Assembly: GCA_965116875.1 (NCBI GenBank)
Contig: OZ220733.1
Span: 864,001 to 928,000, forward strand
Length of the DNA stretch: 64,000 bases
Origin: Candidatus Latescibacterota bacterium
Lineage (GTDB): Bacteria > Latescibacterota > UBA2968 > GCA-2709665
Direction of reading: 5' to 3'
In this document: piece after piece, positions 21,697-51,589 of the stretch
How the letters are laid out: each line of letters starts with the position of its first letter
How positions within the stretch are numbered: position 1 is the first letter of the stretch
The notes under the pieces: model-generated
Databases searched by the model: none
What the model was told of the DNA's origin: nothing
The model's input: the letters and a program-made list of their open reading frames with translations, nothing else
Position numbers and translations under genes: made by a program

Positions 21697-22068
21697 AAGG
21701 AAGAAGGAAAAAGGAAAAAGGAAGAAGTAGCGGTAACTTTGACGTCTGTCATTTCTGCAATCGGACTCTCGCAAGAATCGAATGGAAGCGGATTGCTGTG
21801 GAGAGCGGAAAACCGGCGGCGTTTCCTTGAAATTCAGAGTGTCTATGGATGACCGGCACGCGAAACCTGGCCTTGCACCCTCTCTCCCGGACCTACCCCC
21901 TAACCCCCTTCCTGAAGGAAGGGGGAATGTTGACGGGTGGCTGTACAGGTTTTGTGACGTGCCGGATGGCGATTACCTTTCGATCAGGGCATTTATAGAA
22001 GCCCGGCACGCGACGTACCGGTTTCCTCCCTCTTTCCTTTAGGAGAGAGGGCCGGGGAGAGAGGTCGG
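21697..22068 (+). repeat. Repeat family R1 (~370 bp), copy 1
   Basis: GTAGCGGTAACTTTGACGTCTGTCA..GGAGAGAGGGCCGGGGAGAGAGGT; recurs at 22170 and 35918. Confidence 0.9.
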
Positions 22069-22169
22069 TGCTGGGTGGAGGGGTCGCTTTTGACTTTGCC
22101 TTTCGCTTTTAACTGACGGCTGATGGCTGACAGCTTCTTCCGAGAGGGCCGGGGAGAGAGGTCTGCGGG

Positions 22170-22403
22170 GGGACCTATCCCCTAACCCCCTTCCTGAAGG
22201 AAGAAGGAAAAAGTAGCGGTAACTTTGACGTCTGTCATTTCTGCAATCGGACTCTCGCAAGAATCGAATGGAAGCGGATTGCTGAGGAGAGCGGAAAACC
22301 GGCGGCGTTTCCTCGTAAATCAGAATGTCTATCAATAACCGGCACGCGAAACCTGGCCTTTCCCCCTCTTTCCTTTAGGAGAGAGGGCCGGGGAGAGAGG
22401 TCG
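22170..22403 (+). repeat. Repeat family R1, copy 2 (shorter)
   Basis: About 110 nt near-identical to 21728..21840. Confidence 0.9.
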
Positions 22404-22408
22404 CATAA

Positions 22409-22545
22409 AGGCGGGTAGAGGGTAGACGGAAGACGTTAGAAGAAATCCTTGCCCGGTAGGTTAATCTTCTTGCCTCCGGCACGAGAAGAAGCCTCACGAG
22501 GCAGGCAATCTCTCCCCTCTCCCCTCTCCCGTCTCCCCGTTTCTG
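22409..22545 (+). repeat. Repeat family R2, copy B
   Basis: AGAAGAAATCCTTGCCCG..TTGCCTCCGGCACGAGAAGAAGCCT subtype, as at 41292 and 44753. Confidence 0.85.
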
Positions 22546-22612
22546 AAGGGCCGGGGAGAGAGGTCTGTGGGGAAGGGCGGAGATGTTAGACTTTGACTTT
22601 GTCTTCGTTTCT

Positions 22613-22660
22613 AGCTGATAGCTGACGGCTGATCGCTGATAGCTGACGGCTGATCGCTGA
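22613..22660 (+). repeat. Tandem heptamer GCTGANN
   Basis: gctgata gctgacg gctgatc gctgata gctgacg gctgatc gctga; shorter runs at 22112, 39989, 44575 and 45001. Confidence 0.85.
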
Positions 22661-35917: not shown

Positions 35918-36308
35918 GAGACCTACCCCCTGGCCCCCATCTTGAAGGAAAAAGGAAGAAGGAAAAAGTAGCGGTAACTTTGACGTCTGTCACTTCTGCA
36001 ATCGGACTCTCGCAAGAATCGAATGGAAGCGGATTGCTGAGGAGAGCGGAAAACCGGCGGCGTTTCCTTGAAACTCAGAGTGTCTATGGATGACCGGCAC
36101 GCGACGTGTGCCTTTCCTCCCTCTCTCCCGGACCTACCCCCTAACCCCCTTCCTGAAGGAAGGGGGGACGTTGATGGGTTGATTTACAGGCTTTGTGATG
36201 TGCCGGATAGCGATTACCTTTCAATCGGAGTGTCTATCAATGACCGGCACGCGACGAGTGCCTTTCTCCCTCTTTCCTTTAGGAGAGAGGGTCGGGGAGA
36301 GAGGTCGC
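35918..36308 (+). repeat. Repeat family R1, copy 3
   Basis: Colinear with 21697..22068. Confidence 0.9.
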
Positions 36309-36312
36309 GAAA

Positions 36313-36448
36313 GAGTGGGGAGACGGGAGAGGGGAGACGGTAGAAGAAGCCCTTGCCGATTTGTTCCTCCGACTTGCCTGCGGCATGAAAAGAAGCCCTT
36401 TACGGCATGCGACCTCTCCCGTCTCCCGGCTTACGTCTACCCGCTCTC
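36313..36448 (+). repeat. Repeat family R2, copy D
   Basis: Same core as 5889 and 44379. Confidence 0.85.
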
Positions 36449-36454
36449 AGGCTT

Positions 36455-36501
36455 TTCCTTCTTCCTTTTTCCTTTTTCCTTTTTCCTTCTTCCTTCTTCC
36501 C
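36455..36501 (-). repeat. Tandem heptamer TT(C/T)TTCC
   Basis: About 6 units; reverse complement of the GGAA(G/A)AA runs at 21697, 35944 and 46292. Confidence 0.85.
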
Positions 36502-36510
36502 TTGTTTCTC

Positions 36511-44350: not shown

Positions 44351-45030
44351 TTGCGCGGGCGACCGGCCGGTCGCCTAAATGCGGTGAGACGGGAGAAGAA
44401 GCCCTTGCCGATTTGTTCCTCCGACTTGCCTGCGGCATGAAAAGAAACCTCACGGGGCAGCCAATATCTCCCCTCTCACGTCTCCCCTCTCACCCGGTGG
44501 TCGGGCGGCCGGGTGAAGTGTGGTCCTCTCCCCTCTCCCGGCTTACGTCTCCCCGCTTTTGAGGGTTGGTGGGAGCTGACAGCTGATCGCTCTCTCCGAG
44601 ACCCCGGAGCGAGGGCATCCTGCCCTCGATAGCCTTTATCCGGTCCTGCTTCACAGCGCTGACTTCAACCGATTGTGATTTTGATTCAGGCTGAGAGCTG
44701 AGTCTGCTGGTTTTGTCGTTGCTTTTGCGCGGGCGACCGGCCGGTCGCCCAAATGCGGGTAGACGGGAGAGGGTAGACGGTAGAAGAAATCCTTGCCCGA
44801 CGCTTAATTCCTCGTTGCCTCCGGCACGAGAAGAAGCCTGACAATGCAGGTAATCTCTCCCGTCTCCCGGCTTACGTCTCCCCGCTTTTGAGGGTTGGTG
44901 GGAGGTGCCCCCCGGAGCGAGGGCATCCTGCCCTCGATGCGCCCCTTCTGGTCCTTCCGCTTCAGGGTGCTGACATCGGCTGATTGTTTCTTTGGTTCAA
45001 GCTGATGGCTGAGAGCTGATAGCTGACAGC
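44351..45030 (+). repeat. Composite repeat array (palindrome + R2 + GGAG-REP, twice) ending in GCTGANN heptamers
   Basis: GGGCGACCGGCCGGTCGCC at ~44357 and ~44731; R2 at 44379-44565 and 44753-44894; REP at 44603 and 44911. Confidence 0.85.
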
Positions 45031-45263
45031 TTCTTTCGCTGTTTCTCGACATGACAGGACACGCCCGGTTCCGGCATTCGAGGCTGACGGTTAGCAGCAC
45101 CAGCTAAATCCGAAACAGAAACGGCAGCCGAGTATCAGGCTGCCAGAACTTTAACGAAATATGGGGTCTCCGGCGCTGGAGGAGTTCGATAAGTTTTCCT
45201 GCGTGGATGCTCACTCTGTCACCGCATTCGTCTACCTGACCCGCACACGAGCGCCCATGCCCT

Positions 45264-45985: not shown

Positions 45986-46276
45986 ATGAACAGAGATGAC
46001 GCCGTAAAACTGCTTCGAGCGCACAAGGCGACCCTTGCACAGCGCTTTGGCGTTGTAGACCTCGCCCTGTTCGGGTCAATCGTCCGCAATCGAGCCATAG
46101 GCGACAGCGACGTTGACATCCTGGTGAGGTTCGACTCGCCGGCAACGTCAAAACGGTATTTTGGCGTGCAGTTTTACATCGAAGACCTGCTGGAGCGTCC
46201 GGTTGATCTGGTAACGGACAAAGCGTTGCGGACGGAAATGCGTCCATATATAGAGCGGGAGAAAATCAGTGTCTGA
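45986..46276 (+). CDS. Minimal nucleotidyltransferase (MNT) antitoxin-like protein
   Basis: LFGSIVR..SDVDILV..VDLV. Confidence 0.9.
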   Translation: MNRDDAVKLLRAHKATLAQRFGVVDLALFGSIVRNRAIGDSDVDILVRFDSPATSKRYFGVQFYIEDLLERPVDLVTDKALRTEMRPYIEREKISV

Positions 46277-46367
46277 AGGACACCACCAAGTAGAAAGGAA
46301 GAAAGAAGAAGGAAAAAGGAAGAAGGGATAATTTCGCGATTGATGAGCTGAATGGAGTGTTGACGGA

Positions 46368-46760
46368 ATGAAGGATGAAGGAGGAACGAAGAAGGAAGAC
46401 GTGGTTGATCTTCGGAGTCGGACGAAGGAGTTTGCGCTACGGATCATTCGCCTTTATTCGGGTCTTTCAAAGCAGACCGAGGCACAAATAATAGGCAGGC
46501 AGATGATCCGTTCCGGAACGTCGGTTGGGGCAAATTACCGGGAGGCATATCGCGCAAGGAGCAAAGCGGAGTTCGTCGCAAAAGTCGGTGAATGTCTGAA
46601 GGAGATTGAAGAAACCGGATATTGGCTTGAACTGCTCGGCGACTCAGGACTCGTTCCCGAGGAGCAACTTGAAGGCCTGACAAATGAATGCCGTGAATTA
46701 ACCGCAATTTTCGTCGCTTCAATTCGTACGGCGAAGAGCAGCGATGAACGCGGAGCATGA
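46368..46760 (+). CDS. Four-helix-bundle protein (23S rRNA IVS / Avd-like family)
   Basis: RTKEFALRII..QMIRSGTSVGANYREA..SKAEF..EETGYWLELL. Confidence 0.92.
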   Translation: MKDEGGTKKEDVVDLRSRTKEFALRIIRLYSGLSKQTEAQIIGRQMIRSGTSVGANYREAYRARSKAEFVAKVGECLKEIEETGYWLELLGDSGLVPEEQLEGLTNECRELTAIFVASIRTAKSSDERGA

Positions 46761-46944
46761 AAAACAAGGAAGAAGGAAGAGGGAAGATTTGCGAGTCTTT
46801 GAATAGTCAGGCGATCGCAGACCTCGCGAATGCTGGCGACGGACCACCCGATTATCCTGCCTTTATTTCTTCCTTTTTCCTTCTTCCTTTTTCCTTTACT
46901 CGGGCCTTCCAAAGCGGAGTTCATCGCAAAGTCCGGCGAATGTC

Positions 46945-47657
46945 TGTTAATGATCGCCCATATGCGGCCAAAGCGCGATCGGCCTAATGCGGCCACTTCA
47001 GGATCGCCTTAATCAGGCCACCTGGGATACGATTGAGGTTTCGGACTTTCCGACAACGTATCTACCTTCTGAGTGTCTCCCCGACAGTCAGGAGGGAAGA
47101 TCATGGCAAACCGGAGGTTCGAGATGTATCAGTATCGCCAGGTATTGACGCGTATGCGTTTGGGCGAGTCGGATCGTGCGATCGCCCGTTCAGGGTTGAT
47201 GGGTCGCGAGAAGGCCGGCGCGCTTCGTGAGGTCGCAGGCCGCGAGGGGTGGCTGGAGGCTTCCGGCGCGTTGACTGATGATGCGACCCTTGCGCAGTTT
47301 CTGGATGTTCCTTCCTCACGACCTCAGTCGGCCTCTTCGGTCCTCCCTTACCAGGACAAGGTCACGGCCTGGTGGCGTCAGGGTATCCGGGGTACGGTCA
47401 TCCACCAGGCATTGGTGGACACCTACGGCTATGCCGGCTCGCATTCTTCCGTTCGGCGTTTTCTCGAGGGGCTCAAAGACGCGCATCCCGACGTCACCAC
47501 CGTGTTGGACTTCGATCCGGGCGACGTGGCGCACGTGAACTTTGGGCGGGGTCCCACGATAAAGGGCTTCTTCACGGAACAGGCCACCGAGACGTGGATC
47601 TTCAGCGATGGTGCTGGCCTGGTCTGGGCTCAATTATGCCGATCATGGTTGGCCTGA
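46945..47657 (+). mobile_element. istA: IS21-family remnant: left end plus truncated, frameshifted istA
   Basis: TG-start end with three GATCG..GGCCA subterminal repeats (46952-47022); ORF from 47103 MANRRFEM..SVRRFL..FDPGDVAHVNFG; frame breaks near MVLAWS; no istB. Confidence 0.8.
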
Positions 47658-50200: not shown

Positions 50201-50267
50201 TCGACAAATGGACGCTCTATTAACCATCAATTGGACGCTATCAAATCCGACAAATGGACGCCAGTCG
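50201..50267 (+). promoter_or_regulatory. Triple 11-mer CAA(A/T)TGGACGC array, 23-bp period, overlapping the start codon
   Basis: Units at 50205, 50228 and 50251; the third contains the ATG at 50254. Confidence 0.8.
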
Positions 50268-51501: not shown

Positions 51502-51522
51502 GGCATGTCCGCGCGCTTTCAA

Positions 51523-51589
51523 TCAACAAATGGACGCATGATTAATCGACAATTGGACGCTTATAAAATCGGCAAATGGACGCCAATCG
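51523..51589 (+). repeat. Second copy of the triple 11-mer array
   Basis: Units at 51527, 51550 and 51573; 53/67 identity to 50201..50267 by manual alignment. Confidence 0.85.

Follow-up and report, generated by a model that had tools for sequence, protein, structure and literature searches.

A four-helix-bundle gene between inverted heptamer arrays in a Latescibacterota genome: a candidate intervening-sequence-type cassette outside rRNA

The gene, its heptamer arrays and their neighbourhood

A DNA stretch of 64,000 nucleotides from a Candidatus Latescibacterota genome (the window; G000:C1:864001-928000, with G000 being this genome) was analysed, and coordinates given without a contig name are relative to it. 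On the + strand, heptamer arrays enclose a small gene, with a purine array on the left and its reverse complement on the right (Table 1). The gene product matched PF05635 in Pfam (E 1.7e-20, 73.6 bits against a curated cut-off of 33.8) and TIGR02436, 'four helix bundle protein' (E 7.9e-28, 96.8 bits against a cut-off of 24). It also matched chain A of the solved structure PDB 2RLD over query residues 13-124 (E 8.1e-25; sequence similarity only). The four-helix-bundle assignment made in an earlier sequence-only reading of this DNA was thus confirmed.

The protein has 130 amino acids when read from the ATG at 46368 and 119 when read from a conserved GTG at 46401. This GTG, preceded by an AAGGAGG/AAGGAAG motif, is kept in five of the six genus orthologs, and the G001 ortholog carries an in-frame stop four codons 5′ of it. 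Judging from these alignments, the GTG rather than the ATG may be the true start. Identity of the protein with DGR Avd was considered and rejected: no match to the DivGenRetAVD model was obtained at E 0.001 or better, and the flanking ORFs tested were an MNT gene and an IS21 remnant. For a paralog in the same genome, that model gave a weak match under its cut-off (E 1.7e-07).

Table 1. Features of the cassette, its neighbourhood and the related methylase-borne cassettes
Feature	Position	Strand	Remarks
MNT-type nucleotidyltransferase gene	45986..46276	+	Pfam NTP_transf_2, E 1.3e-14; upstream of the cassette and co-oriented
Left arm	46292..46333	+	Purine array with heptamers of the AAGGAAG type and GGATAAT at its 3′ end; paired to the right arm in the predicted fold
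Spacer, left arm to leader	46334..46364	+	Contains GATTGATGAGCTGA; kept in genus orthologs (read from ortholog sequences)
Purine-rich heptamer-like leader	46365..46399	+	Over the ORF start; Shine-Dalgarno-like AAGGAGG/AAGGAAG; found by TRF
Four-helix-bundle gene, PF05635/TIGR02436	46368..46760	+	Profile searches
Second purine array	46763..46787	+	Directly 3′ of the stop codon; length highly variable among orthologs
Right arm	46850..46897	+	ATTATCC, 10-nt bulge, pyrimidine heptamer array (TTCCTTY); reverse-complementary to the left arm
Remnant of a second copy of the cassette gene	46910..46946	+	Region encoding SKAEFIAKSGECL; 37 nt; cut at 46946
Probable end of an IS21-family element with broken istA remnant	46947..47654	+	Three 25-nt repeats at 46947-47020; istA from 47103
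Methylase-borne cassettes	L004 (G009:C1:1100313-1103630), L018 (G024), L019 (G026)		PF01555 host

Four period-7 arrays were detected with TRF: 46288-46326 and 46867-46897 in the two arms, 46365-46399 across the start, and 46766-46787 behind the stop, in agreement with the earlier statement that heptamer-like sequence overlaps the start and follows the stop. The left arm reads AGAAAGG AAGAAAG AAGAAGG AAAAAGG AAGAAGG GATAAT from 46292 to 46333, letter for letter as that reading had given it. Its right arm had been described as the reverse complement of the left; the complementarity held, and the sequence given for it had omitted 10 bases. The arm consists of ATTATCC (46851-46857), the 10 bases TGCCTTTATT, and then TCTTCC TTTTTCC TTCTTCC TTTTTCC TTT up to 46897. 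In a repeat search, 46294-46324 and 46867-46897 formed an inverted repeat of 31 nt, 94% complementary, with 542 nt between the two halves. The right arm was also complementary to the leader (46365-46399; 34 nt, 79%) and to the post-stop array (25 nt, 88%).

An inverted-arm score was calculated as the local alignment of the upstream flank with the reverse complement of the downstream flank, and control positions within the window were scored with the same geometry. The cassette scored 52. Among the 404 controls the highest score was 45, with the median at 16 and the 99th percentile at 25, so that none equalled the cassette. No target-site duplication was seen at the cassette ends, the bases beside the arms (..CCAAGT / ACTCGG..) not being a direct repeat, and no transposase is encoded inside the cassette. 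A transposon or MITE with terminal inverted repeats was therefore rejected, the interior and spacers also being single-copy in the genome.

In addition to the co-oriented MNT gene, a HEPN gene on the opposite strand lies upstream of the cassette (Pfam). A scan covering the sigma-70 consensus found no sigma-70-like promoter or terminator on the + strand from the MNT gene to the cassette, and the MNT gene is the probable source of transcription into it. Rfam gave no match in the window at gathering thresholds, hence no rRNA context, and a search of the window together with 20 loci from several phyla returned three tRNAs only. Insertion in a helix of 23S rRNA was ruled out, as Rfam detected no rRNA and the flanks are the MNT gene and the IS21 remnant.

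The gene remnant at 46910-46946 is a direct repeat, 86% identical to 46562-46598, and in genome G002 a tandem second copy of the gene is found at this place. The adjoining region is probably the end of an IS21-family element that truncated the second copy, as its sequence suggests; the istA remnant matched NCBIfam transpos_IS21 with E 1.8e-10, below the cut-off of that model. Five to six further partial matches to 46898-47060 occur elsewhere in the genome. A 23-nt tandem repeat (AATCGACAAATGGACGCTGATAA-like; 2.6-2.7 copies) is present farther downstream at two places, 50202-50261 and 51521-51583, approximately 1.3 kb apart.

Orthologs in the genus and heptamer arrays in this genome

The window cassette was found in synteny in 6 of 15 genomes of the genus: G000 and, at approximately 83-85% identity, G001, G002, G005, G008, and G012. 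The orthologs share one plan, consisting of a left array, a spacer, a purine leader, the ORF, a very variable purine array, a spacer, and a pyrimidine array, with the purine array after the stop codon being about 22 nt long in the shortest case and over 100 nt in the longest. The interior of the cassette is single-copy in the genome. Since the cassette is syntenic in the genus and its interior single-copy, the window copy is, on sequence grounds, an old and vertically inherited one that bears no sign of recent movement.

No clean empty site could be defined for the window cassette, because G004, G007, G010, and G013 each show a rearrangement of their own downstream of the MNT gene. In G010 (L150, G010:C14:1-3298), short AAGGAAG-type arms after the MNT gene enclose a different small gene that is not PF05635; it reads like DUF433 and is presumably of that kind, as judged by reading rather than by a profile check. 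In G004 (L152, G004:C238), the MNT gene is followed by an ORF which, by eye, we take to be a HEPN/DUF86-type partner. The window cassette presumably occupies the position of this ORF, of which G008 seems, also by eye, to retain only the tail.

PF05635 genes number only three in this genome. Each of them lies beside arrays of period 7, and the array sequence differs from gene to gene. The window gene has arrays of the AAGGAAG type. On either side of the second gene (L001, G000:C1:2748179-2748490), a compound unit of 45 nt is repeated 3.8 times, with an inverted CTCACTC array beyond it. At the third (L002, G000:C1:3462755-3463069), TAATTCT arrays are in direct orientation and interleaved with repeats of the 3′ end of the gene itself.

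Arrays are far more numerous than these genes. Genome-wide, 179 period-7 arrays were found at a TRF score of 35 or higher, 57 of them of the AAGAAGG/AAAAAGG type; further large sets are of the GGGAGAC, GGTAGAC, and AGCTGAT kinds. Arrays that match AAGGAAR strictly number approximately 40 and are scattered over the genome, as are many more that match it loosely; most AAGGAAG arrays are solo, with no neighbouring gene. A module of about 105 nt, present in the window at 35969-36075, has 19 copies in the genome (88-100% identical), each abutting an AAGGAAG array and gene-less; in only 2 of the 19 does a complementary array lie within about 500 nt. The gene-less arrays are therefore numerous as parts of mosaic spacer repeats. 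The window copy of the module lies, together with a nested GGGAGAC/GTCTCCC hairpin, between an AAGGAAG array and its complement (35945-36506). Further gene-less mosaic spacer repeats with arrays of the AGCTGAY, CTCTCCC, and GGTAGAC kinds lie at 21697-22660 and 44467-45031.

It had been suggested that the protein may act on the arms and so excise or spread itself and gene-less siblings. Gene-less arrays are indeed abundant; their numbers do not track the presence of a cognate gene. Among the 15 genus genomes, whose members are kin and not independent, no link was seen between the two for AAGGAAG (p 0.14) or GGGAGAC (p 0.56). A control with the pattern written backwards is uninformative for AAGGAAG, because the reversed heptamer is a rotation of itself.

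The large surplus of arrays over PF05635 genes, and the 19 gene-less modules each abutting such an array, are what would be expected if an ordinary small gene happened to lie in a repeat-rich spacer, with the arrays being mosaic intergenic repeats functionally unlinked to it. A chance arrangement of this kind is weighed below against the flanks of other family members.

Flanks of PF05635 genes in other genomes and occupied and empty sites

A first set consisted of 32 PF05635 loci from 41 related genomes. By our own reading, a 7n array was present within 150 nt of the gene at approximately 24 of the 32 loci in the relatives. The heptamers differ from locus to locus, and the upstream and downstream ones are usually reverse complements of each other; they included CAGTGGT, CGGGTAC, GAAGTTA/CACTTCA, GATTGCG/ATCCGCA, and GGGGCTG/CAGCCCC. 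The sole locus read as a DGR (L027) lacks arms; we take it to be a DGR from a reverse-transcriptase-like frame downstream, which was read without a profile check.

A second set of 80 loci from many phyla was collected with a search seeded by a 6-sequence alignment, an alignment of 17 sequences being too divergent. From 150 nt upstream to 200 nt downstream of the ORF, 124 tandem arrays were found in 27,895 bp, as compared with 286 in 384,029 bp farther away, a sixfold higher density. The excess is made up of periods 7, 14, and 21, together with periods 8 and 16, the latter two mostly in Bacteroidota. Arrays with a 7n or 8n period were beside the ORF at 69 of the 80 loci (149 of 1321 control positions) and on both sides of it at 43 (4 of 1321 controls). 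Inverted arms could be scored at 78 loci, two having been dropped because their flanks were too short; 45 exceeded the pooled 99th percentile of geometry-matched controls and 33 were below it. A tblastn search of plasmids served as an independent replicate and gave 24 records, mostly cyanobacterial. Ten loci were inspected, nine of them cyanobacterial; among the ten were loci from Nostoc punctiforme, Nostoc edaphicum, Anabaena sp. 90, Trichormus variabilis, and an Azospirillum; all ten had arrays, inverted by eye in at least eight. Direct instead of inverted arrays were seen at the TAATTCT gene of this genome and at a Pseudanabaena plasmid locus.

The layout of a gene between inverted arrays of 7- or 8-mers is therefore typical of the PF05635 family across phyla, and the periodic inverted arms that the sequence-only reading had called for in the flanks of homologs were found. 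These results speak against chance: the association recurs in unrelated phyla with unrelated heptamers, relative to geometry-matched controls from the same loci, and the two arms complement one another within individual loci. Both the inverted-arm and the array tests thus disfavour functionally unlinked spacer repeats, in spite of the many gene-less arrays, and leave such an arrangement very improbable.

Both neighbours were on the strand of the cassette at 61 of 71 classifiable loci, i.e., the 80 loci less 8 with short flanks and 1 that was unclear; for genes in general, about half would be expected to have both neighbours co-oriented. The spacers are short and taken up by the arms: the ORF starts a median of approximately 55 nt after the stop of the upstream gene, and the downstream gene starts a median of approximately 45 nt after the ORF stop. 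Cassettes of this family are thus co-oriented in very short intergenic spacers and, in the case described next, even lie inside an ORF. Annotated sites include cas6/cas4 (twice), cmr2/cmr3, positions after integrase genes, and a type IV secretion cluster. Genes of the PF05635 type inside cas loci have been noted earlier (PMC3936711).

An ORF for a DNA methylase (PF01555) holds a PF05635 cassette with CAGTGGT arms in three genomes, G009, which belongs to the same genus as the window, and G024 and G026, which belong to another family. The insertion site is identical in the three, between ...FGEPDI and (V)HGVDVFHPNTGE..., where a cassette of 454-488 nt replaces a linker of 45 nt; 17 allied methylase alleles from the same order are uninterrupted there. 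In its 300-nt upstream flank, each filled allele most closely resembles empty alleles from the lineage to which it belongs (similarities 0.89, 0.85, and 0.95), and the three cassettes are mutually only 67-78% identical, indicating that the cassette entered, or was exchanged among, three allele lineages at one site. Co-conversion of the flanks around the cassette was not seen, as the flanks cluster by the lineage of each allele.

The host methylase frame is open through the cassette in G009 (957 aa, 486 nt) and G026 (1087 aa, 459 nt). In G024, where the interval measures 493 nt, one extra heptamer causes loss of this frame. No stop interrupts the +2 frame in 3 of 3 methylase-borne PF05635 ORFs, as compared with 3 of 109 others. 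The cassette may here be dual-coding, or may act as a slippage switch of the methylase. In the N-terminal part of the G009 methylase (L004, oriented 636-664), a solo CAGTGGT array is translated in frame (..LSVVSGQWSGG..); the loop bearing it is variable and 11 aa longer than that of the closest empty allele (G001).

The G024 allele bears on a further explanation, namely that the arms are a slipped-strand switch by which the cassette or its host gene undergoes phase variation, via the reading frame or the structure of the leader. A heptamer does not make up whole codons, so that one repeat more or fewer shifts the frame, which is what separates the broken G024 frame from the open ones in G009 and G026. 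The wide length range of the post-stop array among the genus orthologs fits such slippage, as does the variation of heptamer copy number among Coxiella strains (PMC4990558). Most arrays, however, are outside coding sequence, and a switch would account neither for the complementarity of the arms nor for the constant ORF family between them. As the general role of the arms, phase variation is thus improbable.

At a second locus, immediately 5′ of an MFS transporter gene in genus g6 (L168-L184), the PF05635 cassette is present only in G039 and G050. In most sister genomes a solo (CACTTCA)n array immediately precedes the ATG; genomes at a greater distance have nothing there. The array in G050 is expanded several-fold, to approximately 170 nt.

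Related cassettes are thus present or absent at identical sites. The earlier proposals of a polymorphism bounded by the arms and of a mobile cassette that does without a transposase were accordingly upheld in part. They apply to the family, with the methylase gene filled in three alleles and empty in 17; they do not extend to the window copy, which is single-copy and syntenic in the genus.

Predicted fold, interpretation and relation to known systems

The RNA from 46280 to 46910 was folded in silico, and both the MFE and the centroid structure paired the left with the right arm, thereby closing the whole cassette. The predicted energy was -207 kcal/mol (z -2.7 against 20 shuffles). Predicted duplexes with the pyrimidine arm had energies of -50.8 kcal/mol for the left arm, -39.7 for the Shine-Dalgarno leader, and -35.7 for the post-stop array. 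The suggestion that the transcript could form a long stem holding the ORF in its loop is in line with these predictions. Because one pyrimidine arm can pair with three purine arrays, alternative conformers would be possible.

These data, as well as those from the other genomes, lead us to regard the window feature as an IVS-type gene cassette outside rRNA, i.e., a compact, apparently promoterless four-helix-bundle gene between reverse-complementary heptamer arrays, with a probability of roughly 0.6. This reading is based on the layout found family-wide, on the presence and absence at the methylase site, and on the tandem heptamers in the stem of the Coxiella 23S IVS. Of the ways in which such a cassette could work, one with a stem formed in RNA transcribed from the host operon is best supported. 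Read-through from the upstream MNT gene would transcribe the cassette, and the pyrimidine arm would pair with the left purine arm to give a stem of approximately 31-45 bp with the ORF in the loop. In the window copy, the pyrimidine arm could pair alternatively with the Shine-Dalgarno leader or the post-stop array, so that closed, translation-off, and translation-on conformers might exist. A tandem unit would keep the arms pairable in any register, with slippage altering the copy number. As to movement, our favoured guess is that new sites are reached by recombination at dispersed heptamer arrays and not by a transposase.

Arm mismatches provided a test at the level of the strand. Across 42 loci with 1258 Watson-Crick pairs, no excess of G:U over A:C was found (36 G:U and 46 A:C, p 0.32); there is thus no sign so far of selection for a sense-strand RNA stem over a process that is neutral or acts at the DNA level. 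This result would suit an alternative in which the inverted arrays extrude as a hairpin or cruciform from single-stranded or supercoiled DNA and act as recombination sites, the RNA stem being incidental. The arrays would then be comparable to attC sites or serve as portable homology at which cassettes are gained, lost, and exchanged. Such a role would accommodate the MFS locus, where two genomes have the cassette and most sisters a solo array of the same heptamer, the exchange among three allele lineages at one methylase site, the arms of the same kind around a different gene in G010, and the dispersal of strict and looser AAGGAAR arrays in the genome. It should be indifferent to orientation, yet cassettes were mostly co-oriented with both neighbours; the cassette has no recombinase gene; and recombination between inverted arms leads to inversion, not excision. 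A function confined to DNA is therefore considered unlikely.

The IVS-type reading rests on comparison with intervening sequences of 23S rRNA. In Coxiella burnetii, as described in PMC4990558, the IVS has a 28-bp terminal stem that RNase III cuts mid-stem in vitro, and two to three tandem GACAGAT heptamers, with the number depending on the strain, precede the S23p start in the 5′ part of the stem. The authors argue that in Coxiella the ORF of the IVS goes unexpressed and is undergoing decay, and they cite Leptospira also for ORF-bearing IVSs in 23S rRNA. The window cassette resembles these elements in having an ORF of the PF05635 family in the loop and terminal inverted repeats, 28 bp in Coxiella and a predicted 31-45 bp here. 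It further resembles the Coxiella IVS in having tandem heptamers in the stem region (the 5′ stem in Coxiella and, by TRF, period-7 arrays in both arms here) and in having, apparently, no promoter of its own. Unlike the 23S IVSs, it lies outside an rRNA gene, after an MNT gene, and has three purine arrays competing for one pyrimidine arm. Cleavage by RNase III has been observed in vitro for the Coxiella IVS, whereas the stem of the window cassette is a predicted one. Compared with DGR Avd, the window protein belongs to the same four-helix-bundle superfamily; unlike Avd, its gene neighbours an MNT gene and an IS21 remnant and not a reverse transcriptase.

Integron cassettes are compact promoterless ORFs with a hairpin-forming imperfect inverted repeat and are inserted co-directionally. 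Cassettes of the window type are similar in being compact, apparently promoterless, co-directional, and provided with an inverted-repeat hairpin. They are different in having neither integrase nor attI, in having arms on both sides of the ORF, and in being scattered singly in operons.

Abundant heptamer repeats are also known apart from these genes. The cyanobacterial STRR form one such class. The TAACTGA repeats of Beggiatoaceae (PMC4679880) and the G-rich heptamers of Xanthomonas and Nostoc (PMC4692102) are likewise unexplained, and the texts of these two papers do not mention 23S, intervening sequences, helix bundle, S23, or IVS. They are like the present arrays in being short tandem 7-nt arrays in spacers and in being abundant, and PF05635 genes of cyanobacterial plasmids have flanking arrays of this sort. 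In this genome, most arrays stand without an adjacent gene. In the full-text literature, which mostly excludes subscription journals, no general link between the PF05635 family and flanking heptamer arrays was found, heptamers being described for the Coxiella IVS only. As far as found, the layout of a PF05635 gene between inverted heptamers is thus widespread and apparently undescribed in print.

A broader proposal, which we consider speculative and rather doubtful, is that PF05635 cassettes are widespread selfish IVS-like elements carried on host transcripts. Tandem 7/8-mer arrays would serve them as register-free hairpin sites for landing and exchange, through which they would reach operons, rRNA genes, and even ORFs. 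The protein, as a pentamer, would act on the arrays, and gene-less arrays, including the cyanobacterial ones, would be footprints or non-autonomous relatives. If this were true, dual coding inside ORFs would be possible, and heptamer slippage could then switch a host gene.

For annotation, the small genes of this family that lie inside cas operons, defence-type methylase genes, and other operons are mistakable for components of those systems. The layout also supplies substrates for experiments, namely the arm duplex, the single arm, and the ORF in the loop, with model cyanobacteria and Bacteroides as tractable hosts. Two puzzles of long standing, the function of the 23S IVS protein and the origin of abundant bacterial heptamer repeats, would merge into one testable problem.
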